37,840 nt of DNA, from the UHGV virus genome UHGV-0090851. The stretch is one strand, 5' to 3'. Positions 22,328 through 37,840 of the stretch are shown piece by piece. Position 1 is the first letter of the stretch. Each line of letters opens with the position of its first letter. The position numbers and the translations under genes are program-made. Below the pieces are notes generated by a model. That model made no database searches, had not been told where the DNA came from, and worked only from the letters and a program-made list of their open reading frames with translations. Origin of the DNA: a virus.

Positions 22328-22330
22328 AAA

Positions 22331-22666
22331 TTACTCCTTCGAGCTACCAAATTTGTTACCGATTACTCGCATTGCAGCCCCACGAATAGCATCGACACCG
22401 ATCAGCCCCACGCCACCACCAATGGCAACAGAAAGCGATTTAGGCCATCCGACATATTCAAGAGCGGATGCAAAGGTCAGCGTCAGAGCGCCACAGAGCA
22501 AAATCTCGAGCGTTTTTCGCTTCCAGCCACCACCACCGCCAAAATAGGCGATGCGCAAACCAGCCATAACGATCGACATAATCACTGCACCCAGCGGTGT
22601 GTCTCCACGCCACCAGCTCTGAAACAACTCCAGCCAGTCCGGCCAGGTATTTGGGTTATGAGGCAT
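22331..22666 (-). CDS. Holin (lambda S-like, class I)
   Basis: Start taken at ATG 22664-22666 (about 111 aa, three hydrophobic segments); the table ORF extends to a GTG at 22762 that overlaps the methyltransferase gene. Confidence 0.6.
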   Translation of the reverse strand: MPHNPNTWPDWLELFQSWWRGDTPLGAVIMSIVMAGLRIAYFGGGGGWKRKTLEILLCGALTLTFASALEYVGWPKSLSVAIGGGVGLIGVDAIRGAAMRVIGNKFGSSKE

Positions 22667-22742
22667 TTCGTCATCTCTCACCTCGCGATATTTGCGGGTG
22701 CTGTGTTGGAAATAAAAAGGCCACGCAACGTGGCCACCAGAA

Positions 22743-23795
22743 TTATTTCCCCACCAGTTCACTTACCTCTTTCACCGTCTGATTAAACCGCTCTGACTCA
22801 AGTTCAACACCTAACGCCCGACGCCCCAGCGCCATTGCTGCTTTTATTGTGGAACCGGATCCCATAAAGAAATCAGCAACCAGATCACCAGGTCGACTAC
22901 TGGCATTGATTATTTGCCGGAGCATATCCGTCGGTTTCTCGCACGGATGTTTACCCGGGTAGAACTGAACGGGCTTATGCGTCCAGACATCGGTATAAGG
23001 CACGGAGACTGATACGGAGAAATAGCGCCGGAGAGATTTAAACTCATCCAGCAATTCAGAATATTTGCGATTCAGTGAATCATAAGATGCCACCAGCTGG
23101 TGGTGTGGTTGTTCCAGTTGTTGTTCCTGAAACTTCTCTGCCGCTATACGGGAAAACAGTGCCTGTAACTTCCGATAGTCAGCCTCATTCGGCAACTGCC
23201 ACTGACTGGCACCAAACCAGTGGGAAACCATATTTTTCTTACCTGTGGCTTCGGCAATTTGTTTTGCCGTTATACCCAGTTCGGCACGAGCATCCCTGAA
23301 ATACGATATCAGCGGTGCCATTATGTGCTGTTTGAGTTCCCTTTCTTTTGCCGCATAGCCGTCACTTTTGCCGCGATATGGCCCCCGGTAATGTTCAGCA
23401 AACAGAACGCGCTCTGTGGCAGGAAAATATGCGCGCAGACTTTCTTTATTACACCCATTCCAACGTCCGGACGGCTTCGCCCAGATGATATGGTTAAGCA
23501 CGTTGAAACGTTCACGCATCATGATCTCAATATCAGATGCCAGGCGATGCCCACAGAACAGGTAAAGGCTTCCGGCAGGTTTCAACACCCGCCAGAACTG
23601 GGCCAGACAGTGGTCCAGCCACTTAAGGTAATCTTCGTCCCCTTTCCACTGATTGTCCCAACCGTTAGGTTTCACCTTGAAGTAAGGCGGATCGGTAACA
23701 ATCAGGTCAATGGAATCATCAGGCAGGGACTGAATAAAATGCAGGCAATCAGCGTTGATTAAATCAACACTGTTTATTTTTACAGTATTTTTCAT
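22743..23795 (-). CDS. DNA methyltransferase, beta-class (DPPY then FxGxG), probably N6-adenine
   Basis: 350 aa; DPPY motif near the N-terminus (LIVTDPPYF) and AdoMet-binding motif near the C-terminus (DFFMGSGST); ATG verified; no adjacent restriction endonuclease. Confidence 0.85.
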   Translation of the reverse strand: MKNTVKINSVDLINADCLHFIQSLPDDSIDLIVTDPPYFKVKPNGWDNQWKGDEDYLKWLDHCLAQFWRVLKPAGSLYLFCGHRLASDIEIMMRERFNVLNHIIWAKPSGRWNGCNKESLRAYFPATERVLFAEHYRGPYRGKSDGYAAKERELKQHIMAPLISYFRDARAELGITAKQIAEATGKKNMVSHWFGASQWQLPNEADYRKLQALFSRIAAEKFQEQQLEQPHHQLVASYDSLNRKYSELLDEFKSLRRYFSVSVSVPYTDVWTHKPVQFYPGKHPCEKPTDMLRQIINASSRPGDLVADFFMGSGSTIKAAMALGRRALGVELESERFNQTVKEVSELVGK

Positions 23796-23945
23796 GGATC
23801 AGTAAGCGTAACTCTGGTAGGCTCACTCTGCTTTTGCGCTAAAGCAGTGGGCCGTGGTTCGCTTGTGACCAGTAAGCATGAGCGAATGGCTGGCAGGTGC
23901 TACCAACACCCACCAGCCGCCCATTTTCACAGCAGGAAACCGCCA

Positions 23946-24173
23946 TTACTGGCAGCGTCTGAATTTATTCCCGTACCCGCCGTTATCCTTCGCCAGACCC
24001 GCCAGAACTAACTGAGTCAGTATTAACTGGCACCGGGCTTCGCTTACTCCGGTAGTTCTCGTCATCATGCGTGGCGTTACCCACTTGTCAGCAGGTAAGA
24101 AATGAAGGACTGCGGCGGCGGTTTCTGTCATATCTTGCTGTTTTAGCATGTCTTTTTCCCTTCTGGTTAACAT
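23946..24173 (-). CDS. Hypothetical small protein, first ORF after tR'
   Basis: 75 aa (or 67 aa from the internal ATG at 24149); possible HTH-like segment; function unknown. Confidence 0.35.
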   Translation of the reverse strand: MLTRREKDMLKQQDMTETAAAVLHFLPADKWVTPRMMTRTTGVSEARCQLILTQLVLAGLAKDNGGYGNKFRRCQ

Positions 24174-24269
24174 GACATACCAATAACTCTTGTCTAAAAA
24201 TCCAGCAAGATAAAAAGTCAGTATTCACGACCACCAGCGTGTTTACTGTACTGCACCAAGTTTACAGGT

Positions 24270-24293
24270 ACAAAAAACCCGCTCAGTGGCGGG
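24270..24293 (-). terminator. Intrinsic terminator tR' (target of Q antitermination)
   Basis: Minus-strand CCCGCCACTGAGCGGG followed by TTTTTT, about 65 nt downstream of the predicted pR' start. Confidence 0.65.
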
Positions 24294-24341
24294 TTCTTAA
24301 ATCTTATCAACGGTAGACATACAAAGCCCATCGTTGGGAAA

Positions 24342-24370
24342 ATCTTATCCATATTTTTTGAAAAATGCAA
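24342..24370 (-). promoter_or_regulatory. Putative late promoter pR' (with qut region)
   Basis: Minus-strand TTGCAT, 17-nt spacer, TAAGAT, immediately downstream of the Q gene and upstream of tR'. Confidence 0.45.
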
Positions 24371-24401
24371 GCATCATGTCGCCATCTTCGGCGAAAATCA
24401 T

Positions 24402-25154
24402 TTATCTTGTCACTTTTCTCAATTGTGTCTCTGCATATGCTTCTTCCTGCCAGCACTTTGTAACCAGTTTATCAATGACATCTGCATATCCTTTGTACCA
24501 CTGATAATCCGTCAGATCCGGTACCAGCTTCTGGACATGATGCCGCGCCAGTGTGGTTGGTAAACGGCTAAACCGGTTTCCATTGCAACGCCCACAAACC
24601 TTATAAACAGGCGCACCATGAAGCCGGGTTCTTTTTTCATCCAGGACAATACCTTTACCCTTACACCCTCTGCACGCTGTGCTGACTTCTCCCTTACCAT
24701 GACAATGCTGACATAGTTCCTTCACCCACTCTTCCTTGATAACAGATTCCCCGCTTCTGGAGTGTTTCACCACTTCGCGCAATACATTATGAAATCCAGT
24801 ACCAGCACAATGCTCACAGCGAGCCTTACTTGCCGCAGACCTGGAATAATCAGCAAAGGCAAAATTCACAAGGTAAGGAATAATCTGTAGCCGGGTTTCT
24901 TCACTCAATTTATTCAATGTCGGGTTATCCAGTGCCATCGCGTAATTGAGCAGACCTTCAATCGCAAACTGAGGATCCTGAACACCAACTTTTGCCAGGA
25001 ATAAGGCAAACCCAAGCGGTGCTTTCGACTGCACCATCCCCTGCGCAGCCATCACATCCGTAATTGTTAAACCACCAGAGCCTGTCGCCGGTGCGTCATC
25101 GCTCAATTTTGGAGATTTTGGGGAGTAATATTTCGGTAAGGCTTCAAGGTTCAT
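24402..25154 (-). CDS. Late-gene antiterminator Q-like protein
   Basis: Several CxxC zinc-ribbon motifs; position immediately upstream of pR'/tR' and the lysis cassette. Start preferred at ATG 25152-25154 (SD GGAGA) over the table's GTG at 25181. Confidence 0.7.
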   Translation of the reverse strand: MNLEALPKYYSPKSPKLSDDAPATGSGGLTITDVMAAQGMVQSKAPLGFALFLAKVGVQDPQFAIEGLLNYAMALDNPTLNKLSEETRLQIIPYLVNFAFADYSRSAASKARCEHCAGTGFHNVLREVVKHSRSGESVIKEEWVKELCQHCHGKGEVSTACRGCKGKGIVLDEKRTRLHGAPVYKVCGRCNGNRFSRLPTTLARHHVQKLVPDLTDYQWYKGYADVIDKLVTKCWQEEAYAETQLRKVTR

Positions 25155-25167
25155 GCTCGTTCTCCAC

Positions 25168-26163
25168 TTACGCCAGTACACCTATTGCCAGCGCACGATC
25201 GATAAAACGAAATATCAGCTCCAGCTGGGAGCCATACTTCTCTTCAAATGCCACGGTATCCGCATGCAGCTCGTCGTGATGCTTTCTGCACAAAGGCAAC
25301 ACAAAAAGGTCATGCGCTTTTGTTCCCATTCCACCCTGACCGTGACCTATCAGGTGGTGGGGATCATCAGCGGGCTTTCCACAACATGCACACGGCTGTG
25401 TCTTAACCCAGCGCGTGTACTTTTCATTAACCCAGCGGCGACGTTTTGGGCGTAACATAAAAGACTCCGGCGACTCCGGATCCACTTTCAGCGCCAGCAC
25501 CTTTTTCGCCTTATCCTGGATGATGCTGGTGGCAGGAACCGAAGGCACAAGGTCACTTTCCCGGGTGACAGACGGCACAACAGGCTTCGGTAATCTCAGT
25601 GCCTTACGGGCTGCACTTTCCGGTAAGGCGTCCGCCAGGTCATTACGAATCAGCCACCAGCACAGTTCCGGCATTGTCACAACGTGACTGTCATCAAAAC
25701 CGAGATCCCGACGCACAACAGACAACACCCAGCGGGCACAGTTATCCGTTGCCATTGATTCCAGCCGTTCCGTGAACTGATCGCGCAGCTGGTTATCGCA
25801 GTGCCAGCACAGACGGATTGCGCCCGGAGCGTGTCGCATTGTTGTCATGTTCTCGCTGTGCCAGTCGGAATGAAGCCACTGGCAGCCTTTTTCACGAAGT
25901 AACCAGCTTTCAAGACATTCCACGCCACCAGCACGACGGATCACTGCCTCATTGCGGAACACGGCCCGAACGGCAGGATCATCCGCCAGCGGTTGTGATG
26001 CCGCGGGAACGGCACCACTGGCGAAAGATGAATAACGTTCCGGCTCAGGCTCCAGCAGGACACGCCCCTGCATAAACAAGGGCATCAGCTCTGAACCTGG
26101 CCTGAACAATACGATCCCCATACGCGGGGCAATTTCAGGGGTCAGTAGTGCTCTCACGGTCAC
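25168..26163 (-). CDS. Conserved lambdoid nin-region protein (DUF968-like, C-terminal Cys/His cluster)
   Basis: 331 aa; CACCGK...HH...H cluster; GTG start; family name from memory only. Confidence 0.5.
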   Translation of the reverse strand: MTVRALLTPEIAPRMGIVLFRPGSELMPLFMQGRVLLEPEPERYSSFASGAVPAASQPLADDPAVRAVFRNEAVIRRAGGVECLESWLLREKGCQWLHSDWHSENMTTMRHAPGAIRLCWHCDNQLRDQFTERLESMATDNCARWVLSVVRRDLGFDDSHVVTMPELCWWLIRNDLADALPESAARKALRLPKPVVPSVTRESDLVPSVPATSIIQDKAKKVLALKVDPESPESFMLRPKRRRWVNEKYTRWVKTQPCACCGKPADDPHHLIGHGQGGMGTKAHDLFVLPLCRKHHDELHADTVAFEEKYGSQLELIFRFIDRALAIGVLA

Positions 26164-26164
26164 C

Positions 26165-26974
26165 TCAATGAACGGTATCGAGCAGCTTTAACAGCTCTGG
26201 GAATCGGGATTCGAAGAAATGCGGCTGCGTCTCGCGCGGATTTGCGGGACTGGTGATGTTCTTGCCGAACATGCAGCCTTTCGCCGTCAGCGACCAGAAT
26301 TTTTTGATGTTGTTAATCGCTGTACGGCTGTATCGTTCGCGCTGTTCGACGATCCCCAGCTTCGCCATCTGGTGATATGCCTGATTAGCCGTAAGGCGGA
26401 TACCATACTGTTTCAGCAGTGCACTCAGCGACAGCGTAGGGCGACTTGAGCCATCAGGCGCGTCAGCAGGAGCATCAATGGCATAGCGCGGTGCCAGATT
26501 CGGTAAGCCAACAGCCTCCTGGAGTTTCTGACAGGCACCAAGCACAGATGAGTTAGACAGGTTTAACTCCCGGCGCATAAAGTCCAGCAGAATCACGCCA
26601 GCCTGCATCTTGTCAGCAGCCTGTCCGGATAACTTTTCCGGCGCGCTGGTTACCATATCGAAAGTACGGATCACCTTCAGATGGAATGACGGGCTGATCC
26701 ACATTGCATAGGCATACACCAGTTCCTTACAGACATACGTTCCCCGTTCATTTCCCCCATGAATCACACTCACCGGGTCAACACCCAAATTCTGGGTGTT
26801 GGTCAATTCATGAACAAGCTCAACAGTTTGTTGGCTGGAAAGAAACTTTCCCGGCTCCTTGGTTCTGGCATTTGCACCAGATGCTACTGCTGCGCGATGC
26901 AGATCGTTCAGGCTGTAACGCCCATAAGCATCACGACGAACTTCAATACCATCAATGACCATCAGATTATTCAT
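26165..26974 (-). CDS. KilA-N domain protein
   Basis: Start at ATG 26972-26974 with strong SD AGGAGA; N-terminus MNNLMVIDGIEVRRDAYGRYSLNDLHRAA typical of KilA-N. Confidence 0.7.
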   Translation of the reverse strand: MNNLMVIDGIEVRRDAYGRYSLNDLHRAAVASGANARTKEPGKFLSSQQTVELVHELTNTQNLGVDPVSVIHGGNERGTYVCKELVYAYAMWISPSFHLKVIRTFDMVTSAPEKLSGQAADKMQAGVILLDFMRRELNLSNSSVLGACQKLQEAVGLPNLAPRYAIDAPADAPDGSSRPTLSLSALLKQYGIRLTANQAYHQMAKLGIVEQRERYSRTAINNIKKFWSLTAKGCMFGKNITSPANPRETQPHFFESRFPELLKLLDTVH

Positions 26975-26993
26975 ACTTCGTTTCTCCTTTTGC

Positions 26994-27383
26994 TCAGGCG
27001 GCTGCACCCGCCGTTTTCTCGTACTTACTGATAGTGATCTCGACCTTCCCTTCCGGGATAACCGGTCCCCACTCCACCAGCATTCTTTTCACCTGTCTGT
27101 CGTCTTCCCACACACCCGCGTGGGTCAGGGCGTCAAACAGCGCCTTGTTATAGTTGTCCAGATCGCGGATCCGGTTATCCGGAGGAAACAACACGATCTC
27201 CACTGAAGCAGGTGCCGACGTTGGTTTTGGCAGACGACGTAACTGCTCAACTATTGCTGCGCACGCCGCGCTCTGAAATTTTCGCCCCGCCGCGCTTATC
27301 AGGCTCTTACCAGAAAATGCCCCTTTGTTGGGGTGTCGCCAGTACGTGTTCACGCTGGGCGGAAAAGGCAGGATCAGCTTCAT
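26994..27383 (-). CDS. rusA: Holliday junction resolvase RusA
   Basis: 129 aa; RusA-like motifs (LPFPPSVNTYW...RDLDNYNKALFDALTHAGVWEDDRQV). Confidence 0.85.
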   Translation of the reverse strand: MKLILPFPPSVNTYWRHPNKGAFSGKSLISAAGRKFQSAACAAIVEQLRRLPKPTSAPASVEIVLFPPDNRIRDLDNYNKALFDALTHAGVWEDDRQVKRMLVEWGPVIPEGKVEITISKYEKTAGAAA

Positions 27384-27706
27384 ACTTTCAGGTCCCTCTC
27401 ATGTAACCAGTGGGTTGCACGCAGCCTTGCGTTTTCCTCACCGGCAAGCAGTGCGCGGATAATCCCGACCGCCTCGCTGTCGTCGTCCTTCACCGCGGTA
27501 TGAAGCGTTATCCCCCGGGCCACGCCACGCTTTATCGTGATGACGCCTTTTTTCTCCAGTGCGCGAAGATGCTCCACCGCTGCATTCACTGAACGGTATC
27601 CCAGCATGGTTGCCACCTCCTGATTGGTTGGCGGAAAGCCACGCTCTTTCTGATAAGAAATCAGCATATCCAGCACCTGCTGCTGGCATTGAGTTAATGT
27701 CGTCAT
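27380..27706 (-). CDS. LexA N-terminal DNA-binding-domain homolog lacking the S24 peptidase domain
   Basis: 108 aa; strong similarity to the LexA winged-HTH as recalled, including the recognition helix (SVNAAVEHLRALEKKGVI vs LexA SPNAAEEHLKALARKGVI); no catalytic domain. Confidence 0.7.
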   Translation of the reverse strand: MTTLTQCQQQVLDMLISYQKERGFPPTNQEVATMLGYRSVNAAVEHLRALEKKGVITIKRGVARGITLHTAVKDDDSEAVGIIRALLAGEENARLRATHWLHERDLKV

Positions 27707-28356
27707 GCCGCCATCTCCCTGACCAGTTTTTCCGCCTGCTGGCGAACCTGCGCCAGAAACGCCTCACCACATGCCTCAAGTTCATCGCGCCCGATGTAGC
27801 TGATTGCCGGTCCCTTCCAGGTCTTGTCAAAAACAGCAATAGCACCAGCGAAAAAAGCTCCTGTCGGTACCTGCTTCTCGTCTTTCGGGATAAACCAGAC
27901 AGGCAGTTCAAAACCAATACGCCCGCGAATAAAAGCAATATGATCTGCATCTTCCGGCCACCACACTTCGCTGGTGGCAGCTTTGATCAGGAAAACATAG
28001 CGCCCGCCCTTATCACGCATGGCACTGGCATGTTTCATGATGTAACGCATGCCGGTGATGTATTGCCCCTCATGCTGACTGGCGCGGCTGTATGGAGGAT
28101 TACCAAAGGCAGCACCTTTAAGCTCCGCAAGGCGTTCTGACCAGTCATGCGCCAGCGCGTTGTCTTCCGCCGTGTAATACGCGGCACATTTGGCGTTATC
28201 ACCGTCAGTGAACAGATCCAGAACAAACGGGCCAAACAGGGTGTTAATTCCCCAGAAAATGTTGTCCGGCGTGCGCCACTGATCACCCACTTCCTTCAGT
28301 TCATGGGCTGGTTTGTTCCGCAGTTCCACCAGCTCCTGGCAATATTTATTACTCAT
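27703..28356 (-). CDS. Phage Dam-like DNA N6-adenine methyltransferase
   Basis: Start taken at ATG 28354-28356 (TAATG overlap with the upstream stop); conserved WRTP near the N-terminus and FGNPPYS catalytic motif. Confidence 0.8.
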   Translation of the reverse strand: MSNKYCQELVELRNKPAHELKEVGDQWRTPDNIFWGINTLFGPFVLDLFTDGDNAKCAAYYTAEDNALAHDWSERLAELKGAAFGNPPYSRASQHEGQYITGMRYIMKHASAMRDKGGRYVFLIKAATSEVWWPEDADHIAFIRGRIGFELPVWFIPKDEKQVPTGAFFAGAIAVFDKTWKGPAISYIGRDELEACGEAFLAQVRQQAEKLVREMAA

Positions 28357-28844
28357 TAAGCCCCCACGTAATTCCCTGACAGATACCACTCATCACCCGA
28401 TACAGCGCGCTTGCTGCTTTTCCGTAAACACTGCTCACGACGCACCAGAAAATTGTTTCGTTCTGGCTGGGAGTGGCTTTCACGGAATGCCGCCATCCAC
28501 ACCGTTGCAGCACGACGGTATAGGCCCCTGGACTCCAGTTCTTCCGCCTGGCGGGTCAGGCACAAAATCACCCGGGGATCGTTAGTGCCGACATAGAAAT
28601 TGCGCACAGGTCTGGTTTCACGAACTGGTTGTGGTTCCGGCTCCTGCGCTCTCTCAGTCAGGCGTGGGAAATGTCTGCGTGTATCTCCTTCACAACGGTG
28701 AGCCACACGCCCACTCTGACGTAACTTGCTTGCTGACTGCAGAACGCGCTGCCGTGAGTAACCTGCAAAAGCATCCGCAATGTCTCCGGAAGTACACCCC
28801 GGATGGGCTTCAATGAATTTCTGAACTTCATTCAAAAGACTCAT
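28356..28844 (-). CDS. Hypothetical protein, possible winged-helix N-terminus, in the helicase-loader position
   Basis: About 162 aa from ATG 28842-28844; follows the replication initiator where lambda P or DnaC-like genes usually sit, with no resemblance to them. Confidence 0.4.
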   Translation of the reverse strand: MSLLNEVQKFIEAHPGCTSGDIADAFAGYSRQRVLQSASKLRQSGRVAHRCEGDTRRHFPRLTERAQEPEPQPVRETRPVRNFYVGTNDPRVILCLTRQAEELESRGLYRRAATVWMAAFRESHSQPERNNFLVRREQCLRKSSKRAVSGDEWYLSGNYVGA

Positions 28845-28846
28845 GA

Positions 28847-29839
28847 TCACCCCCTGAATCCTGCCGGGATCTGGCTGTAGTCCACGTTGTCGTAACTGGC
28901 TTTGAAGTACGGGTCTTCACGTTTTTCTGTGTGCGTGCTGACGGACGGCGATAAGCGCAGGGAAAGCTCATCCCATTTTTCCCGCAACTTCGACGGGCTG
29001 AGCACGTTACGGCACCAGAACGGATCGCGGCTGACGCGGCTGTACATCTCGCAGATTTGTTTGTGAGTACGACCATCCTGCACACACATCAGGCGAATTT
29101 CGTTTGCCCAGGCTGTCCAGTTCGGTTCTTTGGGACGAACCACCTCGCCGTCACATTCGGCGGCCTGCTCGTACAGGGCGATGATTTTTTTCCAGAGCCA
29201 CTGTGCGCAGGTCAAATCATCCTGCGTTCCCCACTGGCGCTTTTTAGGGCTGAATACAACCGCATCAGGATGGCGAGTTAAAAACTCCTGTTCAGCCGTT
29301 TGCGTGTCCGGTTGCGAAGCGTCCGGACGAGAAGAGGTTTTATTCTCTGTAGTAATCTCTGTTGTATTCTCTGTAAGATCATTGGGCCATTTTGACCCGA
29401 TGACAGCGTGTCGTTTTGAACCAATGGATCGTGTCATTTTGCGCCCATCCATCAGGTCACTTTGACCCGATGGAGAAGTGCATTTTGACCTGATCGATTC
29501 GTTCACTTTGACCTCTTCTAAAAGCTCACTTTCATAGTTGATCGTGTAGAAGTTGGTCATGTCACGCTTCGATTTATTGAGTTGCTCGCGACGCAAAACC
29601 CCAAGTGATTTCAGGCTTGCAAATGTGCGTTTCAGAGTGGACTCTGACCAGAACGGAAACTGCTCCAGCCACTGTTCTGTCGTGTTATAAACCCAGCGAA
29701 TTCCGCCATGCTCAGTGCCTGAATTCGTTTCATTCAGCCAGTAATGAAGCTGCTGCAACACAATTGCCTCATTCAGACCAATACGGCATGCAAGATCACG
29801 ATTTATCACAATGGGCTGGGATGTCATTAACAGGCTCAT
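28847..29839 (-). CDS. Replication initiation protein (lambda O-like replisome organiser) carrying the origin
   Basis: 330 aa; iteron array and AT-rich tract lie inside the coding sequence as in lambda O; ATG verified at 29837-29839. Confidence 0.7.
   Translation of the reverse strand: MSLLMTSQPIVINRDLACRIGLNEAIVLQQLHYWLNETNSGTEHGGIRWVYNTTEQWLEQFPFWSESTLKRTFASLKSLGVLRREQLNKSKRDMTNFYTINYESELLEEVKVNESIRSKCTSPSGQSDLMDGRKMTRSIGSKRHAVIGSKWPNDLTENTTEITTENKTSSRPDASQPDTQTAEQEFLTRHPDAVVFSPKKRQWGTQDDLTCAQWLWKKIIALYEQAAECDGEVVRPKEPNWTAWANEIRLMCVQDGRTHKQICEMYSRVSRDPFWCRNVLSPSKLREKWDELSLRLSPSVSTHTEKREDPYFKASYDNVDYSQIPAGFRG
29388..29516. repeat. Origin of replication: six 23-bp-spaced iterons
   Basis: CATTTTGACCCGATGA, CGTTTTGAACCAATGG, CATTTTGCGCCCATCC, CACTTTGACCCGATGG, CATTTTGACCTGATCG, CACTTTGACCTCTTCT, with an AT-rich tract containing short TTCTCTGT repeats at 29337-29385. 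Confidence 0.65.
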
Positions 29840-30008
29840 GACCGACCTCTATTTCCCTGAATTTACGACGAAACTGTTCGAGCGGACTGAAGCATTCATG
29901 TTCATAGCCTTCACGGAGGTAGATAACCCGTTGTGTTTCCGGCTCCCAACGAATGACTCTGACGGGCACTCCGTAGTGATCTTTGAACCAGCGGTTAACT
30001 TGTCGCAA
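29796..30008 (-). CDS. Alternative-frame ORF (TTG start), possible downstream part of a frameshifted gene
   Basis: 70 aa, no ATG; TTG at 30006-30008 preceded by SD GGAGA; protein-like composition. Confidence 0.25.
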
Positions 30009-30187
30009 AGGACTGTCTCCTTCTGCCGGTTGAAATCACCCACAGCCCACTCTGCAAAGCTGTGGGTTACAATTTCCCTGTCACCTGGTACATTCACTGC
30101 ATAGCAATACTCCACCTTCGCTTTTCCACCCGGTACAGGAAGCGCAATCAGTTGCGAGCGACGGTAGTGTGTTGTTAAACTGTTCAT
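29849..30187 (-). CDS. Hypothetical protein (ATGA-coupled to the upstream gene); C-terminal part doubtful
   Basis: 112 aa ORF with ATG at 30185-30187; the last ~50 aa are Ser-rich and low complexity while the overlapping alternative frame looks more protein-like. Confidence 0.35.
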
Positions 30188-30735
30188 GCGTTAGTTTCTC
30201 CACAGACACAAAACGCCACGGCGCCCGGAGCTGCACACTCGCGGGCGTCACTCTTTTCTGGAGCGCAAAAGATTTTGTAGACCAGTGCTGCATGCTCCTG
30301 CAGCTTCGAAATTGACATGTACAGCTCGTCGTTAATTGCTGCCTGCTCGTGTGGTTCCACCACCCCGTCTTCAATTGCTGAACGAATCTGTCTGGAATAA
30401 CTGCCGATCTGTTCAATGACCTCCAGCAGGCGCTGGTTGATATCGGCGTTCTCTACTTCCTCAATTTCAGGAAGTGATACAAACACCCCACCAGCAGACT
30501 GTGCGACAGCATCCGCAATGTGGTGATTGCCAGCAGCACGCTGTAAAACCATTGCCCATCCCAACGGGAAAATCTGATCGCCATCTGCACGAAGGCGGTT
30601 GAATAAAGCGTTCTCTGTTACATCCAGCCAGTCAGCAGCTTCAGCGTAACCCCCTGGCAATGCCGCGATAGTTTTTCTGACAGCTTTCACGTACCACTCA
30701 GGTTGTTTTTCCACTTTCCAATGATGCTTACCCAC
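30184..30735 (-). CDS. YdaT-like protein (CII-position early regulator)
   Basis: 183 aa immediately downstream of the Cro-like gene; GTG start with strong SD AGGAGG; family assignment from memory of Rac-type immunity regions. Confidence 0.5.
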
Positions 30736-31085: not shown

Positions 31086-31778
31086 ATGAACATAGGAAAT
31101 CGAGTCAGACAACTTCGCCAGGCGAAGAACATGAAAATCGCCGATCTCGCTGAAGCAATAGGAGTGGATGCGGCGAATATCTCGCGCCTCGAAACAGGTA
31201 AGCAGAAACAATTCACTGAACAAGCCCTGAGTAATATTGCCAGGAGCTTAGGTGTTGATATTGCTGATCTCTTTACCTCAGACCTCAAAAGTAATACTGT
31301 ATGTAAAAACAGTATTAGTGAGGATGTTGCGCAGGTGAAGGATGTATTCCGTATTGAAATGCTGGATGTCAGTGCCAGTGCGGGAAATGGCCTTATCCAG
31401 GGCGGTGATGTCATTGATGTGATTCATGCCATTGAATACAGAACTGATAATGCTGTATCGATGTTTGGTGGACGACCAGCAAATCACATTAAAGTTATCA
31501 ACGTTCGTGGGGACAGTATGTGTCCAACCATTGAGCCAGGAGATCTCATCTTCGTTGATATCAGTATCAATCAGTTTGATGGGGATGGTATATATGTATT
31601 TGGTTTTGATGATAAAATTTACGTCAAACGACTGCAAATGATACCTGATAAACTGCTGGTAATTTCTGATAATCAGATTTACCGCGAATGGGGAATTACC
31701 AGCGAAAACGAACACCGGTTTATGGTCTTTGGAAAGGTCTTAATCAGTCAGTCACAAACCCTTAAGCGACACAATTAA
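31086..31778 (+). CDS. CI-type phage repressor (HTH plus S24 LexA-like peptidase domain)
   Basis: 230 aa; N-terminal HTH (VRQLRQAKNMKIADLAEAIGVDAANISRLETG) and C-terminal autocleavage domain (VRGDSMCPTIEPGDLIFVD...VKRL). Confidence 0.9.
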   Translation: MNIGNRVRQLRQAKNMKIADLAEAIGVDAANISRLETGKQKQFTEQALSNIARSLGVDIADLFTSDLKSNTVCKNSISEDVAQVKDVFRIEMLDVSASAGNGLIQGGDVIDVIHAIEYRTDNAVSMFGGRPANHIKVINVRGDSMCPTIEPGDLIFVDISINQFDGDGIYVFGFDDKIYVKRLQMIPDKLLVISDNQIYREWGITSENEHRFMVFGKVLISQSQTLKRHN

Positions 31779-31800
31779 CCCCCTACCTCAACATCAATTA

Positions 31801-31824
31801 GCCACCAGAAGGTGGCTTTTCATT
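31801..31824 (+). terminator. Intrinsic terminator downstream of the repressor gene
   Basis: GCCACC-AGAA-GGTGGC followed by TTTTCATT. Confidence 0.6.
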
Positions 31825-31834
31825 ACTCACGCTA

Positions 31835-31872
31835 TTGCATATCTCGCAATAAAATACTTGCACGTTACGCAA
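31835..31872. promoter_or_regulatory. oL-like operator pair
   Basis: TTGCATATCTCGCAA (31835-31849) and TTGCACGTTACGCAA (31858-31872), same TTGC-N7-GCAA architecture as the site at 31051-31065. Confidence 0.45.
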
Positions 31873-32343
31873 TTTCATTTTATCTTTCTTTCCAGACCAA
31901 CAAACAAGGTCCTGACAAAATTTGGTTGTAACACGGCGTATGGCACATGCGTCGTTAGCGGTCTGGGGACGTTAAAGGGGACAATCCACTCCTTGCTCGG
32001 GCAAACAAACCAGGTAGCCGGAATGTGCAAGTCAATGATGATGCTGATAAGACGCCTAACCAGCGCGGCGATCCGGTTTGACGCCTGGGAAGAGACCAGG
32101 GTGCAACGATGAGGGCATTTATGGAACCGCGACAAAGTGTGGTGCCGTAACTGGCTAAGTGCTCTCAGCGTTGTGGTAATCCGCGAAATGGCGCGGCGGT
32201 AAGTATGGCGGGGTTACTCTTTCCCCGTTGAGGACACCGGATTGTCAGGTTGACCATACGCCTGAGTGACAACCCCACCACAACAGCCACTGCTTTGGCG
32301 GTGCCAGTTTGTACACTTGCTTCCGGCTGGTACCGCTCTTTTT

Positions 32344-32432
32344 ACAAAACAGAGAAGAGCATCACCGGACGACGGGCTCATAACCCAATCCATCCGGGCG
32401 GCTGCCACCGCAGGTGTTCTTCTCTGTTTTGT
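32344..32432 (+). repeat. Perfect 15-bp inverted repeat with 59-nt spacer in the early-left leader
   Basis: ACAAAACAGAGAAGA (32344-32358) and TCTTCTCTGTTTTGT (32418-32432); sits about 50 nt upstream of the first early-left gene. Confidence 0.4.
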
Positions 32433-32480
32433 GGAGAAACCAACCGACCTTGCAGGGTCGATATGATGAGGAACAGCAAA

Positions 32481-32843
32481 ATGGCTAGCGAACGCAGTAC
32501 TGATGTGCAGGCATTTATCGGGGAGCTGGACGGCGGCGTATTTGAAACCAAAATCGGCGCAGTTCTCAGTGAAGTCGCTTCCGGTGTGATGAACACGAAA
32601 ACCAAAGGGAAGGTCTCACTCAACCTGGAAATCGAACCATTTGATGAGAACCGTGTGAAAATCAAACACAAACTCTCATATATTCGCCCGACTAACCGCG
32701 GGAAAATTTCCGAAGAAGACACCACCGAAACGCCGATGTATGTCAATCGCGGTGGTCGCCTGACTATTCTGCAGGAAGACCAGGGACAATTACTGACTCT
32801 TGCCGGTGAACCTGACGGAAAACTCCGCGCAGCAGGTCATTAA
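32481..32843 (+). CDS. Hypothetical early-left protein
   Basis: About 121 aa from ATG 32481; the longer table ORF from 32250 starts at TTG and its N-terminal region does not look protein-like. Confidence 0.45.
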   Translation: MASERSTDVQAFIGELDGGVFETKIGAVLSEVASGVMNTKTKGKVSLNLEIEPFDENRVKIKHKLSYIRPTNRGKISEEDTTETPMYVNRGGRLTILQEDQGQLLTLAGEPDGKLRAAGH

Positions 32844-32908
32844 TATCGTTTTTAATAAACTGATTATTTATCTCATCACTGAATATTTTTATATAGTGAG
32901 GACTTATT

Positions 32909-33733
32909 ATGTCTCAGAACTTAGACGCAACCGCAATTAATCAAATCCATGCCCTTATTTCTGCTCAGGGTGTTAATGAAATTATCAGTAAGATTGGTGC
33001 CGATGCTGTGGCATTGCCTGAGAATTTCCGCATTCATGATCTGGAAAAATTTAATTTAAATCGCTTCCGTTTCCGTGGTGCGCTTTCCACTGCCAGCATC
33101 GATGACTTTACCCGTTATTCTAAAGATCTTGCAGATGAAGGCACCAGCTGCTTTATCGATGCTGATAATATGCGTGCCGTCAGTGTACTTAACCTGGGTA
33201 CTATTGATGAACCAGGTCACGCAGATAACACCGCCACTCTCAAACTGAAAAAGACAGCACCGTTCTCTGCCCTGTTGTCTGTTAACGGCGAGCGTAACTC
33301 CCAGAAGTCACTGGCAGAATGGATTGAAGACTGGGCCGACTACCTTGTGGGCTTTGATGCCAATGGTGACGCTATTCAGGCAACAAAAGCGGCTGCGGCA
33401 GTCCGTAAAATCACGATTGAAGCAAACCAGACCGCTGATTTTGAAGATAATGACTTCAGCGGCAAACGCTCCCTGATGGAGTCTGTCGAAGCGAAGACAA
33501 AAGACATTATGCCAGTGGCATTTGAATTTAAATGCGTTCCGTTTGAAGGTCTGAAAGAACGTCCGTTTAAATTACGCCTCAGCATTATCACTGGCGATCG
33601 TCCTGTACTGGTTCTGCGCATTATTCAGCTGGAAGCGATGCAGGAAGAAATGGCTAACGAATTTCGTGATCTGCTTGTTGAGAAATTCAAGGACAGCAAA
33701 GTAGAAACCTTTATTGGTACTTTCACCGCCTGA
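32909..33733 (+). CDS. YfdQ-like protein (DUF2303)
   Basis: 274 aa, ATG with SD; resembles the CPS-53/KpLE1 prophage YfdQ family as recalled. Confidence 0.6.
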
Positions 33734-33861
33734 TTTCATTACTGCAAATGCCCCTGCGGGGGCATTTATGGAAACGTAATTAACTCAATAATCACCGGAT
33801 GGTGAGAGCTTCCTTTTAGCAGAATTCAGCGCGGTGCAGCGCATATAAAGTGGAGAACAAA

Positions 33862-34398
33862 ATGTCATTTATTAAAACTTTTTCCGGGAAGCATTTTTAT
33901 TATGACAGGATAAATAAAGACAACATCGATATTAACGATATCGCGGTTTCCCTTTCAAATATCTGTCGCTTTGCCGGTCATCTTTCACACTTCTACAGCG
34001 TCGCCCAACATGCGGTGCTTTGCAGCCGGCTGGTGCCGCAGGAATTTGCTTTTGAAGCGTTAATGCATGATGCAACAGAAGCGTATTGCCAGGACATCCC
34101 CGCGCCACTGAAACGCCTTCTTCCTGACTATAAACGGATGGAAGAAAAAATAGACGCCGTAATCCGTGAGAAATACGGGTTACCCCCGGTTATGAGTACG
34201 CCCGTGAAATATGCCGATCTCATCATGCTGGCAACCGAACGCCGTGATCTCGGGCTTGATGATGGCTCTTTCTGGCCTGTACTGGAAGGCATCCCGGCAA
34301 CAGAGATGTTCAACGTGATTCCACTGGCACCGGGCCATGCCTACGGGATGTTTATGGAACGCTTCAACGAGTTATCGGAATTACGCAAATGCGCATAA
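33862..34398 (+). CDS. yfdR: HD-domain 5'-deoxynucleotidase, YfdR-like
   Basis: Start at ATG 33862 (SD GGAG); H...HD metal-binding motif (AGHLSHFYSVAQHAVLCS...ALMHDATEAY); strong resemblance to E. coli YfdR as recalled. Confidence 0.7.
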   Translation: MSFIKTFSGKHFYYDRINKDNIDINDIAVSLSNICRFAGHLSHFYSVAQHAVLCSRLVPQEFAFEALMHDATEAYCQDIPAPLKRLLPDYKRMEEKIDAVIREKYGLPPVMSTPVKYADLIMLATERRDLGLDDGSFWPVLEGIPATEMFNVIPLAPGHAYGMFMERFNELSELRKCA

Positions 34399-35267
34399 CT
34401 CATGTAGTTAGTTTTTCTGGCGGGAGAACATCTGCATATCTTGTTCACCTGATGGAAGAACAAAGAAAGGCTGGCAATAACGTCTGCTACATCTTTATGG
34501 ATACCGGTTGCGAACATCCGCTGACATACCGCTTTATTCGGGAGGTTGTGAAGTTCTGGGGCATATCGCTAACTGTGTTGCAGGTCGATATAAATCCAGA
34601 GCTTGGGCAGCCAAATGGTTATACGGAATGGGAACCAAAGGATATTCAGACACGAATGCCGGTGCTTAAACCGTTTATGGACATGGTAAAAAAATATGGC
34701 ACGCCATACATCGGCGGCGCGTTCTGCACTGACAGATTAAAACTCACCCCCTTCACAAAATACTGCGATGACCATTTCGGACGAGGGAATTACATCACAT
34801 GGCTGGGTATTCGTGCAGACGAACCTCGTAGGCTGAAACCGAAATCGGGCGTCCGGTATCTTGCCGAGCTATCTGATTTTGATAAGTCGGATGTTATCCG
34901 GTGGTGGCATAAACAACCTTTTGATTTGCAAACCCCGGAGCACCTCGGGAACTGTGTTTTCTGCATCAAAAAGTCCACGCAAAAGCTGGGGCTTGCATGT
35001 AAAGACGAACCTGGTCTGATGCGAGTTTTTAATGAGCTGGTTACAGGTAAACACGTCCGGGATGGTCACCGAAAGACAAATAAAGACGTTATGTACCGTG
35101 GTCATCTGAGCCTTGACGGGATTGCCAGAATGTATGCCGACAGCGACTACAGAAATTTGTATCAGGCGATGGTGCAAGCCAGGCGATTCGATACCGGCTC
35201 GTGTTCAGAGTCATGTGAAATCTGGGGTGATCAATTGGAGTTGAAATTCGAAGAGGTGGTGGCATGA
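34389..35267 (+). CDS. PAPS-reductase-like PP-loop protein
   Basis: 292 aa; N-terminal PP-loop SFSGGRTSAY; C-terminal Cys clusters; overlaps neighbours (translational coupling). Confidence 0.65.
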   Translation: MRITHVVSFSGGRTSAYLVHLMEEQRKAGNNVCYIFMDTGCEHPLTYRFIREVVKFWGISLTVLQVDINPELGQPNGYTEWEPKDIQTRMPVLKPFMDMVKKYGTPYIGGAFCTDRLKLTPFTKYCDDHFGRGNYITWLGIRADEPRRLKPKSGVRYLAELSDFDKSDVIRWWHKQPFDLQTPEHLGNCVFCIKKSTQKLGLACKDEPGLMRVFNELVTGKHVRDGHRKTNKDVMYRGHLSLDGIARMYADSDYRNLYQAMVQARRFDTGSCSESCEIWGDQLELKFEEVVA

Positions 35268-35740
35268 CAACCAAAATTAACTATCAGGCACTGCGTGAGG
35301 CGGCAGAAGCAATAAAAATAGTAGCCACACCACAAAAATTGCTGGCATTTCGTATGAAAGTCACACCGCAGGTTGTGCTGGCGCTGCTGGATGAGCTGGA
35401 AGCAGCAGAGAAGCGAAACGCTGAATTACAAAGCGAGAATGCATACATCCGCAACCGGTACAAAGAACTGGACCTATTAATCGGGAAAAACATTCTGGTC
35501 ATGCAGGCTGCCATTATCGAATGGCAGGCAACTGGCGACGCTAAGAGCGGACTGGCATGGATTTATAACACACTGTTTGGCCCTGGCGAATTACCGGACG
35601 AATCTGAGAAAGATGCTCAGGCCTACTTTAATCGCAAATATGCACCGATTGACGAAAAGCTTATGGCGCTTCACAAGTGGTTTTGGGAACAAAGTGAAGC
35701 CGAGCGCGCCGCCGCCAACATTGGTGTGAAGGGGAAGTGA
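35264..35740 (+). CDS. Ead/Ea22-like protein
   Basis: 158 aa; coiled-coil central region; ATGA overlap with the upstream stop; family assignment from memory. Confidence 0.5.
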   Translation: MTTKINYQALREAAEAIKIVATPQKLLAFRMKVTPQVVLALLDELEAAEKRNAELQSENAYIRNRYKELDLLIGKNILVMQAAIIEWQATGDAKSGLAWIYNTLFGPGELPDESEKDAQAYFNRKYAPIDEKLMALHKWFWEQSEAERAAANIGVKGK

Positions 35741-35741
35741 G

Positions 35742-35933
35742 ATGAACGGACAAATCTCAATTGTTCGACCGGGAGCATGTGACGATTGCGAGATACGAAT
35801 GATTATTCGTCTGGCGAGGGGGAAAACAATAACTGCTCTCATTACTCCTGAAAATCTCGCATTAGCATTAACAGGAAAGTCAGACCTGCCAGTAGAGCTA
35901 AAGCTGCGAAATATTGAGATTAAAGTGAAATAG
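35742..35933 (+). CDS. Small hypothetical protein
   Basis: 63 aa, ATG with SD; tightly packed in the operon. Confidence 0.4.
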   Translation: MNGQISIVRPGACDDCEIRMIIRLARGKTITALITPENLALALTGKSDLPVELKLRNIEIKVK

Positions 35934-35935
35934 TT

Positions 35936-36679
35936 ATGAATACTCTTACCAAAGAATGGTTACAGAACACGATTACCAGCATTGAGTCAGCACGGGATGA
36001 AATACCGTTCGGACTCGATGAAGATCAAAACAACATGCTTACCGCATTAAAAATTGCACTGGCATCACTGGCATCACTGGCAGCAGTATCGGATGAACGA
36101 GCAGCCTATGAATTATTTATGGAGAAGCGTTTCGGGGAATCTGTAGATCGCCGTAGGGCAAAAAATGGCGATAGAGAATACATGGCATGGGATATGGCGC
36201 TTGGCTGGATTATCTGGTGTCACCGCGCCGCCATGCTTCAGGGTAGCCAACCTGTAAGCCAAACTTACAACTTGCCAGAATTAATCGAAGGCATGGAAGT
36301 TTCCATTGATGTAAGCACTTGTGATGCTGATTTAGGTAATCGCTATTTCGGCACCGTCACCGAGGCGTTAGAACTTGATACAGCCAAGAATGGTTACATC
36401 CTCCTGGTTCAGGACGCAGAGCCAAACTTCGATGTAAATGGCAACTCTCCGGTAACTCCGGATAGTTGGATAAGCTGTAGTGATCAAATGCCTGAAAAGG
36501 GCCAGAACGTGCTTATTTCGGTGAATTTCGATAGCTCTCTGGTTGAACCGCTAATATGCTCCGCACGCTATACCGGAAGCACCTTTCGGCGCGGAGATGC
36601 AACGATTAAGCCGGGTAATGGTATTGAGCAAGCAACTCACTGGATGCCGCTACCGGAACCGCCGCAGGAGGTGAAGTGA
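35936..36679 (+). CDS. DUF551-containing protein with Ea22-like N-terminus
   Basis: 247 aa; C-terminal segment (WISCSDQMPEKGQNVLI...THWMPLPEPP) resembles DUF551. Confidence 0.55.
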   Translation: MNTLTKEWLQNTITSIESARDEIPFGLDEDQNNMLTALKIALASLASLAAVSDERAAYELFMEKRFGESVDRRRAKNGDREYMAWDMALGWIIWCHRAAMLQGSQPVSQTYNLPELIEGMEVSIDVSTCDADLGNRYFGTVTEALELDTAKNGYILLVQDAEPNFDVNGNSPVTPDSWISCSDQMPEKGQNVLISVNFDSSLVEPLICSARYTGSTFRRGDATIKPGNGIEQATHWMPLPEPPQEVK

Positions 36680-37251
36680 TGAACAACTTAATGATCGACC
36701 TTGAGACGATGGGGAAAAATAAGGATGCACCGATCGTTTCCATTGGCGCGGTGTTCTTCACTCCAGAAACCGGAGACATCGGACAAGAATTCTATACGGT
36801 TGTTAGCCTGGAAAGTGCTATGGGGCAAGGAGCTACACCTGACGGCGATACCATCCTGTGGTGGTTGAAACAAAGCCCTGAAGCACGAGCTGCAATCTGT
36901 ATTGATGATACTTTGTCGATCAGCGATGCTCTCTCAGAACTAAATCATTTCATTAACCGGCACGCAGACAATACGAAATATTTAAAAGTCTGGGGTAACG
37001 GAGCCACCTTCGACAACGTAATTTTACGTGGAGCTTATGAGCGAGCAGGACAAATCTGCCCGTGGGCATACTGGAATGACCACGATGTACGCACGATCGT
37101 TACGCTTGGGCGTTCCATCGGATTCGACCCCAAAATGGACATGCCTTTCGATGGCGAACGGCACAACGCCCTGGCTGATGCCCGTCATCAGGCAAAATAT
37201 GTTTCCGCTATCTGGCAGAAATTAATTCCTGCCACCAGCACAGAATTATGA
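36679..37251 (+). CDS. 3'-5' exonuclease, DnaQ-like DEDDh family
   Basis: Start at ATG 36679 (SD GGAGG); Exo motifs IDLET (motif I) and HNALADA (motif III). Confidence 0.7.
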   Translation: MNNLMIDLETMGKNKDAPIVSIGAVFFTPETGDIGQEFYTVVSLESAMGQGATPDGDTILWWLKQSPEARAAICIDDTLSISDALSELNHFINRHADNTKYLKVWGNGATFDNVILRGAYERAGQICPWAYWNDHDVRTIVTLGRSIGFDPKMDMPFDGERHNALADARHQAKYVSAIWQKLIPATSTEL

Positions 37252-37287
37252 TTTTCCCGGGTGCAGCCGGTTTTGATGGAGAAAATT

Positions 37288-37569
37288 ATGAACACCTTGT
37301 TTTTACTGATGGCTGAATTCAATACCCCTAACATTGAACTCTCAGCAGTTAGCCAAAAGTACTTTGGCATGAGTCCAGCCACGGCAGAAGCAAAAGCAAA
37401 CGCTTGTAAGTTGCCCGTTCCAACATATCGCATCGGCACATCACAAAAAGCAAAACGTTGCATCAATATTCAGGATCTTGCGGAATACATAGACAAAAGA
37501 CGAGAAGAAGGACGTATCGAGTGGGAACAGGTCAGAACAAGCAAACAGAAGGGCAAAGAACATCACTAA
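37288..37569 (+). CDS. PrtN-family / excisionase-like small DNA-binding protein
   Basis: About 93 aa from ATG 37288 (SD GGAG); MNTLFLLMAEF...KLPVPTYRIG...INIQDLAEYID resembles PrtN-type regulators; last gene of the early-left operon. Confidence 0.5.
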   Translation: MNTLFLLMAEFNTPNIELSAVSQKYFGMSPATAEAKANACKLPVPTYRIGTSQKAKRCINIQDLAEYIDKRREEGRIEWEQVRTSKQKGKEHH

Positions 37570-37577
37570 ATAAAAAA

Positions 37578-37597
37578 CCCGCCTAAAGGCGGGTTTT
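37578..37597. terminator. Bidirectional intrinsic terminator
   Basis: CCCGCC-TAAA-GGCGGG flanked by an A-run upstream and TTTT downstream; sits between convergent genes. Confidence 0.6.
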
Positions 37598-37616
37598 CAA
37601 AAAGCACCAGCTATGA

Positions 37617-37790
37617 TCATGCTGCTTTGCGACGACGAAGCTTACCCTGCTGCTCTTTACCAGAGACAGTAGCGTGAGTGAACGCATTAGGAGCAGCCTT
37701 CATCAGAACTTCAACAGCAGCACCCATACCTGCGAATGCTTTCATTGTGTCGAACTTAACCTGTGGCTTGGTTGCTTTTTGATCTTCCAT
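37617..37790 (-). CDS. Small hypothetical protein, convergent with the early-left operon
   Basis: 57 aa ORF absent from the >=60 aa track: ATG at 37788-37790 with strong SD AGGAG 7 nt upstream; Lys/Arg-rich C-terminus; could be host or phage. Confidence 0.4.
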   Translation of the reverse strand: MEDQKATKPQVKFDTMKAFAGMGAAVEVLMKAAPNAFTHATVSGKEQQGKLRRRKAA

Positions 37791-37840
37791 AGAAAACTCC
37801 TGAAGTTATACCGAAACAATTCCTGTTGTTTACTCATCAT

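Follow-up and report, generated by a model that had tools for sequence, protein, structure and literature searches.

Shuffled accessory cassettes in the early-left operon of a probable Chi-rich lambdoid phage without a Rec module

The virus genome UHGV-0090851 (37,840 nucleotides; hereafter the window, meaning the whole stretch of DNA analysed) carries the early-left (PL) operon of a lambdoid phage at positions 32481-37569 on the plus strand. With a probability of roughly 0.8, we read this as the operon of a complete Escherichia coli temperate phage of the SfV/mEp460 type, which belongs to the class described as having no Rec module and being rich in Chi sites (the LLS functional type), and whose early-left genes are shuffled cassettes. 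These would be accessory cassettes exchanged independently of one another rather than the parts of one pathway. The operon is already known: it is a very common prophage operon, and its oddity, the missing recombinase, has been published and explained.

An earlier note on this DNA had remarked that the operon carries no Bet/Exo, RecT/RecE or Erf. This was borne out by Pfam and PHROG profile scans and, for Bet, Exo, RecT and RecE, by tblastn. The scans covered both early operons, where lambdoid Rec genes lie, and revealed no member of the single-strand annealing protein (SSAP), Exo, SSB or Gam families. A tblastn search of the whole window with lambda Bet, Exo, Gam, NinB and NinG and with Rac RecT and RecE gave nothing below E = 0.07, while Erf and Abc2 were covered by the Pfam and PHROG profiles alone. 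Judged by these searches, the early operons appear to encode no strand-annealing protein, partner exonuclease, SSB or RecBCD inhibitor. The only recombination enzymes found were the integrase and a resolvase:

26994-27383, minus strand: RusA Holliday-junction resolvase (PF05866, E = 1e-14), the sole homologous-recombination enzyme found

Lambdoid phages of this kind form a described class. Among 314 enterobacterial lambdoid phages, Zheng, Casjens, Davidson, Amundsen and Smith (Genome Res 2025, PMC12315714) counted 68 without a Rec module. Of these, 62 had eight or more actively oriented Chi sites and no more than six in the other orientation, concentrated toward the right end; Chi was the commonest octamer in LLS, the phage that they studied. 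In the window, Chi (GCTGGTGG) occurs 18 times against 1.63 expected, a count reached in none of 100 shuffles, with 15 sites on the minus strand and three on the plus strand (strand bias P = 0.008). Since the minus strand encodes the terminase, head and tail proteins, it corresponds here to the lambda 'top' strand, and RecBCD that enters at the terminase-proximal (cos-proximal) end, near 21 kb, meets Chi on this strand from its 3' side. Of the 18 sites, thirteen (ten of them on the minus strand) lie within 21.8-30.6 kb, where the host density predicts 1.9 (Poisson P = 1e-7), and in the cos-proximal 9 kb Chi is about seven times as dense as in the average host sequence. Chi is also the commonest minus-strand octamer (15 occurrences versus nine for the next), as it ranks first in LLS and P1. 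The active-orientation sites are as follows:

21876-30495, minus strand: ten active-orientation Chi sites (GCTGGTGG) in the cos-proximal lysis/Q/nin/replication region
1339, 12146, 18088, 18444 and 37232, minus strand: five further active-orientation Chi sites, from the scan for the same octamer

The pattern of the class (at least eight active sites, at most six inactive, clustering at the right end) is therefore present, with 15 and three, and the window phage agrees with the LLS functional type in every feature that can be tested by sequence. The strong, oriented enrichment of Chi argues that the phage relies on RecBCD. Thus, the missing recombinase is already explained by a described class together with the Chi count found here.

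Like the phages of the LLS functional type (LLS, ST64B and phiNP; PMC12315714), the window phage combines a lambdoid layout with a lack of SSAP, exonuclease, SSB and anti-RecBCD genes, an early-left yfdP-yfdQ-HD cluster, many active-strand Chi sites close to the right end, and Chi as the top octamer. It differs from LLS in its SfV/mEp460-type myovirus-like tail genes, its HK97-like TerL/HNH packaging module and an extra ninC cassette, and it has a RusA gene, whereas LLS is without a nin-region recombination gene. RecBCD dependence has been reported for LLS, which grows more slowly on recB and recC hosts and normally on recD, and would be predicted for the window phage. After the model of Zheng et al. 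(2025), the host RecBCD-RecA pathway would supply the recombination needed for packageable concatemers, and the phage RusA could help to resolve the junctions.

The integrase and xis genes lie at opposite ends of the window (50-1147 and 37261-37569), with genes for tail, head, an HK97-like terminase/HNH module, lysis, Q, nin-like, replication and immunity functions between them; the window therefore holds a complete phage genome of about 37.8 kb in circularly permuted form. The gene order is lambdoid (int-xis-early left-cI-cro-replication-nin-Q-lysis-packaging-head-tail) and matches that of mEp460. The 5.2-kb operon stretch is 96-98% identical at the DNA level to E. coli prophages, parts of it are present in 3682 of 5426 complete genomes, and it also matches the phages mEp460, 1720a-02 and SfIV and many Stx phages. 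The remaining window matches phages of the SfV/SfII/mEp460 type. Two genes delimit this arm of the genome:

50-1147, plus strand: tyrosine integrase (PF00589, E = 2e-20), which joins xis across the window ends
31086-31778, plus strand: CI-type S24 repressor (Peptidase_S24 plus helix-turn-helix), which marks the start of the leftward arm

Downstream of cI and a terminator, the operon comprises nine plus-strand genes, tightly packed and mostly overlapping:

32481-32843, plus strand: yfdP, 120 aa (PHROG 204; PF27127 in newer Pfam), the upstream partner of yfdQ
32909-33733, plus strand: yfdQ, DUF2303, 274 aa (PF10065, E = 6e-92)
33862-34398, plus strand (alternative GTG start at 33850): yfdR, HD-domain phosphohydrolase (PHROG 318, E = 1e-110)
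34389-35267, plus strand: ninC orthologue, a Cys-rich PP-loop protein of the PAPS-reductase superfamily (PF01507, 37.5 bits against a cut-off of 22.5)
35264-35740, plus strand: Ead/Ea22-like protein (PF13935, E = 1e-10), the C-terminal half of which matches PHROG 250/18739
35742-35933, plus strand: 63-aa protein (PHROG 1222, E = 3e-40)
35936-36679, plus strand: DUF551 protein related to YfdS/YfdT (PF04448, E = 5e-21), 81% identical to K-12 YfdT over 48 aa
36676-37251, plus strand: DEDDh exonuclease, DnaQ-type, Rv2179c-like, 3'-5' (PF16473, E = 4e-75), adjoining xis/int
37261-37569, plus strand: excisionase, PrtN-type (PF11112, E = 4e-23; PHROG 1300)

The protein families that the earlier note had named are real, each being recovered by Pfam or PHROG profile searches, and both the HD and the PP-loop motifs are intact. 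With all named families and their catalytic signatures in place, the observation itself is confirmed.

The conserved unit of the operon is the YfdP-YfdQ pair. Among 80 species-representative genomes (YfdQ 41-99% identical; mostly Enterobacterales, with the marine gammaproteobacteria Marinobacter, Hahella and Photobacterium; radius 6 kb), YfdP adjoins YfdQ in 79 and an HD gene is present in 58. Beyond the HD gene come hypervariable slots with exonuclease, integrase, Xis, ParB-HTH, DUF551, DndB, HNH or methyltransferase genes; the DEDDh exonuclease is found at 25 of the 80 yfdQ loci. In other genera, the slot 3' of yfdPQ(R) (loci L089-L168, positions +2/+3) contains genes for DndB-family proteins (two), ParB-HTH proteins (four), another PAPS_reduct protein (one), HNH nucleases and methyltransferases, a mixture which suggests a counter-defence hotspot. 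The window proteins YfdP, YfdQ and YfdR are 98.3%, 98.5% and 97.2% identical, respectively, to those of the K-12 prophage CPS-53, whose yfdP-yfdQ-yfdR-yfdS-yfdT cluster (Noguchi and Katayama 2016, PMC4776307) has the same gene order and junction sequence, with DUF551-type genes downstream. The two differ in that the window has a ninC cassette at the position of yfdS and other downstream cassettes, and in that CPS-53 is what is left of a prophage, while the phage of the window is complete.

In several other genomes, YfdP-YfdQ lies in the same operon as a complete recombination module, which argues that the pair is not a replacement for the recombinase. Nine enterobacterial viral contigs have the arrangement Bet-Exo-(195 aa)-YfdP-YfdQ-(147 aa)-NinC, and a Pontibacterium metagenome-assembled genome (MAG) has RecT-YqaJ(+gp5.9 domain)-YfdP-YfdQ. 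The order is YqaJ-YfdP-YfdQ in Kistimonas and Gp157-YfdP-YfdQ-SSB in Hahella, and Burkholderia phage JC1 encodes RecT and YqaJ alongside a DUF2303 protein. Previously, a hidden recombinase in the yfbR(HD)-yfdQ-yfdP cluster of LLS and ST64B was judged unlikely, since ArgO145 has both the cluster and a full Rec module (PMC12315714). In the enterobacterial contigs, the 195-aa gene between exo and yfdP (L064:2479-3066) is unannotated and the 147-aa non-HD gene replaces yfdR. The Pontibacterium MAG (L168:4029-5615) encodes, between RecT and YfdP-YfdQ, a 528-aa YqaJ-type exonuclease with a C-terminal domain like the RecBCD inhibitor gp5.9 of T7, which appears to be an exonuclease/anti-RecBCD fusion.

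The predicted folds of YfdP and YfdQ (AlphaFold2 models, predicted local distance difference test (pLDDT) 76-77) resemble nothing solved, and these models showed no likeness to Rad52/RecT/Erf, RecA or OB folds. In line with the earlier note, no product of the operon was found to have SSAP homology by profile or fold similarity. DUF2303 is a large family (1828 cluster representatives at 50% identity), and, of its top 150 members, those of full length measure about 250-300 aa and have no added domains. A homologue with about 40% identity has been solved as the 'YfdQ Protein' in PDB entry 9o7m, with 36 identical chains in the one entry (chain C is an example, and chains A/B may be another molecule); searches by the entry code and by YfdQ/DUF2303 found no publication for it. 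The most conserved part of YfdP, residues ~78-105 (EEDTTETPMYVNRGGxLTxLQEDQGQL), is predicted to be disordered, suggesting that it may be a partner-binding tail.

The earlier note had also proposed that the HD and PP-loop proteins form a functional pair. The conservation of their gene neighbourhood, assessed in three ways, gave no support to this proposal. NinC was found within 6 kb of YfdQ in none of the 80 species-representative genomes, and an HD gene adjoins NinC in none of ten diverse phages (lambda, Oslo, Erwinia 49, a chi-like phage, four Vibrio groups, Riemerella and Agrobacterium). Among 80 IMG/VR loci of close relatives, with NinC at least 93% identical, most have YfdP-YfdQ-HD upstream and ten have no HD gene; in the nine enterobacterial contigs described above, a 93%-identical ninC lies directly 3' of the non-HD 147-aa gene. 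When the window, K-12 and mEp460 are aligned, they are collinear up to AAATGCGCAT, in which the stop codon of the HD gene overlaps the next ATG, and then diverge completely, into ninC in the window and into yfdS/EaE cassettes in K-12 and mEp460. Because the neighbourhoods are not conserved, the divergence sets in at the HD stop/ATG and ninC also follows a non-HD gene, the adjacency of the two genes is a chance mosaic junction, a lambdoid module boundary, and not a conserved two-enzyme unit.

For the HD protein, the earlier verdict of an unknown function proved too pessimistic, since it is 97% identical to K-12 YfdR, a DnaA-binding inhibitor of initiation at oriC. K-12 YfdR binds domain I of DnaA at Phe46, competing with DiaA and DnaB, and multicopy yfdQ and yfdR together with yfdS or yfdT block oriC initiation (PMC4776307). 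Host-replication takeover is the most economical reading of the early-operon role of the yfdP-yfdQ(-yfdR) cassette, and the properties of the K-12 proteins suggest that it could act in this way. When the window protein was aligned with 52 homologues (53 sequences in all), the conservation of H50, H69-D70 and D119 was at least 97%, and YfdR matches the structure 2gz4 (Atu1052) with E = 8e-14. This intact, conserved HD metal site suggests that YfdR may also keep phosphohydrolase activity. The HD fold and the H...HD...D metal-binding residues are shared with the YfbR-type 5'-deoxynucleotidases; for YfdR, a much lower nucleotide affinity than for these enzymes has been reported, with a DnaA-binding role instead. 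Assignment as the YfbR equivalog itself was rejected, with 23.5 bits against a cut-off of 25.9 for the Pfam YfbR-like family and 19 against 122 bits for NCBIfam NF003009.

The PP-loop protein aligns end to end with lambda NinC without a gap (78% identity over 290 aa) and can be assigned from this alignment as its orthologue, with the same PP-loop and cysteines. The two genes differ in location: in lambda, ninC follows ninB in the early-right nin region, and in the window, as a gene relocated from that region, it follows yfdR in the early-left operon. Across 25 NinC homologues, the S-G-G and the final S of the loop S10-G-G-R-T-S15 (an SGGxDS-type loop with T in place of D) are invariant, as are five cysteines (C113, C189, C192, C272 and C276). 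A bona fide PAPS/APS reductase (CysH) was rejected as an identity, because the C-terminal ECG[LI]H motif is absent and CysH structures can be aligned with no more than its N-terminal ~70-100 residues; a NinC profile search of the PDB gave CysH-type N-terminal matches only.

With SspD, DndC and BrxP, NinC shares a PAPS-reductase-type PP-loop N-terminal half and conserved cysteines, but only its N-terminal ~150 residues align with them. SspD is the nearest relative among defence systems (PADLOC E = 3e-15, residues 5-150), and the matches to BrxP and DndC are marginal. A phosphorothioation enzyme of the DndC/SspD kind was ruled out as well: the match is not full-length, and the early operons, the expected place for such accessory genes, contain neither a partner ATPase (DndD/SspC) nor a DNA-binding subunit (DndE/SspB), while the late and structural genes were only sampled.

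Several phages associate NinC with DNA methylation. Vibrio podophages encode it as a fusion with a PF05869 Dam domain; it lies directly 3' of the Dam gene in Salmonella phage Oslo, adjoins methyltransferases in Riemerella and Agrobacterium phages, and is near one in Vibrio K249, so that four to five of ten diverse phages have a Dam fusion or an adjacent DNA methyltransferase. Piel et al. reported that a PAPS-Dam gene and its DUF6475 neighbour, moved into a sensitive Vibrio phage, allowed growth on a Dnd host (bioRxiv 10.1101/2021.05.05.442762), and a literature search on NinC function and on anti-defence by phage PAPS reductases found nothing beyond that study. The N-terminal domain of this protein (p0018 of Vibrio crassostreae phages 44E38.1/75E35.1) is 55% identical to the window NinC over ~96% of its length. 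As in the window, it is a phage accessory gene tied to DNA methylation; its product is a fusion that includes a PF05869 Dam domain, and the DUF6475 gene lies upstream. The window has neither the fusion nor a DUF6475 gene; its NinC stands alone, with a separate Dam in another operon (27703-28389), and anti-Dnd activity was shown just for the Vibrio two-gene cassette. An HD protein was ruled out as the partner gene of this cassette, which is DUF6475.

The hint of an anti-defence function in the earlier note remains plausible for the PP-loop protein alone (as a NinC orthologue with likeness to SspD and to the Vibrio anti-Dnd cassette) and fails for an HD/PP-loop module. By analogy with its Vibrio homologue, NinC, as a PP-loop ATP pyrophosphatase, would most likely be a DNA-modification or anti-restriction factor that acts with the phage DNA methyltransferases against phosphorothioate-based defence. 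For the window NinC, we put the chance of an anti-restriction or DNA-modification role somewhat below even.

Several points weigh against our overall reading. The RecBCD dependence of the window phage would be an extrapolation from LLS, and the case against a novel SSAP is built on profile searches and on AlphaFold2 models of only moderate confidence. The K-12 YfdQRST effect was seen at multicopy only, and deletion of the genes had no replication phenotype (PMC4776307). The Vibrio test swapped two genes together, so the share and mechanism of the PAPS domain itself are unproven (bioRxiv 10.1101/2021.05.05.442762), and our literature search found no reported phenotype for lambda NinC. Cryptic prophages can also gain Chi passively, accumulating it like the chromosome (Zheng et al., PMC12315714), and K-12 CPS-53, which has the same yfdPQR genes, is cryptic. 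The genes and the Chi sites could accordingly be those of a decaying prophage that lost its Rec module and ameliorated passively to the host genome. We consider this highly improbable: the window genome looks intact, with a full, uninterrupted set of genes for integration, regulation, replication, lysis, packaging, head and tail; its nearest relatives mEp460, SfV, SfII and 1720a-02 are on deposit as complete genomes of phages; and Chi, as the top octamer with a 15:3 strand bias and about seven times the host average density in the cos-proximal 9 kb, is both oriented and clustered.

A recombination system that escapes recognition, with YfdP-YfdQ as a strand-annealing/mediator pair in place of Bet/Exo, would agree with the strict conservation of the pair, with its position beside RecT, YqaJ or SSB genes in distant phages and beside Bet-Exo in enterobacterial contigs, and with folds unlike any solved. 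The 36 chains of the solved YfdQ homologue would fit a large SSAP-like oligomer, and a yfdQ deletion is cited in PMC4776307 as weakly sensitive to methyl methanesulfonate and H2O2. However, the pair coexists with complete Rec modules and hence is no substitute for them, as Zheng et al. also concluded from ArgO145; neither protein resembles Rad52/RecT/Erf, RecA or OB folds; and the oriented Chi enrichment speaks for RecBCD instead, which together make such a system improbable. A joint pathway of the HD phosphohydrolase and the PP-loop enzyme for nucleotide or DNA hypermodification can draw on the 10-nt overlap of yfdR and ninC, consistent with translational coupling, on their adjacency in most of the 80 close relatives of the window NinC allele, and on the intact catalytic motifs of both products. 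Yet the overlap AAATGCGCAT is a shared module boundary that is also used by the yfdS/EaE cassettes, the two genes do not keep company in the wider genome sets, the same NinC allele also follows a non-HD gene, and the partner of NinC-Dam in the Vibrio cassette is not an HD protein. We give this pathway hardly any probability and retain the reading of independent cassettes in a Chi-rich phage of the LLS functional type.

In that reading, the remaining operon would consist of Ea22/DUF551 lysis-lysogeny accessory genes, the int-proximal DEDDh exonuclease and Xis. The exonuclease has all its motifs, D8xE10 (ExoI), D113 (ExoII) and H163x4D168 (ExoIII); int-proximal DnaQ-type nucleases were classed as non-Rec-module genes by Zheng et al. 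(PMC12315714), and a literature search on Rv2179c-type phage exonucleases found nothing pertinent. Residues 46-147 of the Ea22-like protein (35264-35740) match the PADLOC 'DpdH' model (E = 1.2e-37), which is assigned to the Dpd 7-deazaguanine defence island; because the Ea22-like protein matches it, this model may itself describe a prophage-derived domain.

Upstream of the operon, a terminator scan revealed a perfect bidirectional hairpin at 31800-31817, 3' of cI. The ~600-nt leader between cI and yfdP (in the stretch 31780-32480) has no convincing plus-strand open reading frame and no N-like gene, and a sigma-70 scan of it gave no convincing PL; on its minus strand, 32214-32408 encodes a C-terminal fragment of PHROG 3651. 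At the far end of the window (37261-37840 region), a 57-aa PHROG 2741 gene accompanies xis, and the attachment site is to be expected close to the ends of the window. A search of the whole window against Rfam gave no matches. The early-right operon encodes CII, an O-like protein, a PerC/YfdN protein, a PF05869 Dam methylase, a protein with a LexA DNA-binding domain, RusA, KilA-N, DUF968/HNH and Q. The phage has two DNA methyltransferases, the PF05869 Dam-type enzyme of this operon (27703-28389, minus strand), which is of the same domain family as that fused or adjacent to NinC in other phages, and a 350-aa N6_N4_Mtase adjoining the lysis genes (22743-23795, minus strand). Beside RusA, a 108-aa protein (27380-27706, minus strand) consists of the LexA DNA-binding domain alone (PF01726, E = 3e-19) and could compete at SOS boxes.

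A further, joint reading would make YfdP-YfdQ an undescribed DNA-transaction complex and NinC a general factor against phosphorothioate-based immunity. We regard it as rather unlikely. If it were true, YfdP-YfdQ would ride beside Rec modules, with a large YfdQ oligomer handling replication or recombination intermediates or, together with YfdR, hijacking DnaA/DnaB, and the stand-alone NinC would be a phage counter-measure to Dnd, Ssp and BREX-4 that cooperates with phage Dam methylases.

For the operon as a whole, several names already exist: three of its genes are those named in K-12, including yfdR with its published activity, and one is lambda ninC. The window genome is an independent example of the rule that lambdoid phages have either a Rec module or Chi, and shows the oriented, end-clustered Chi predicted in 2025. 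The genome comparisons further indicate that yfdP and yfdQ are obligate partners, which occur alongside recombination modules instead of taking their place. Finally, the recurring association of NinC with DNA methyltransferases could give lambda ninC a function, the evasion of phosphorothioate-dependent restriction.

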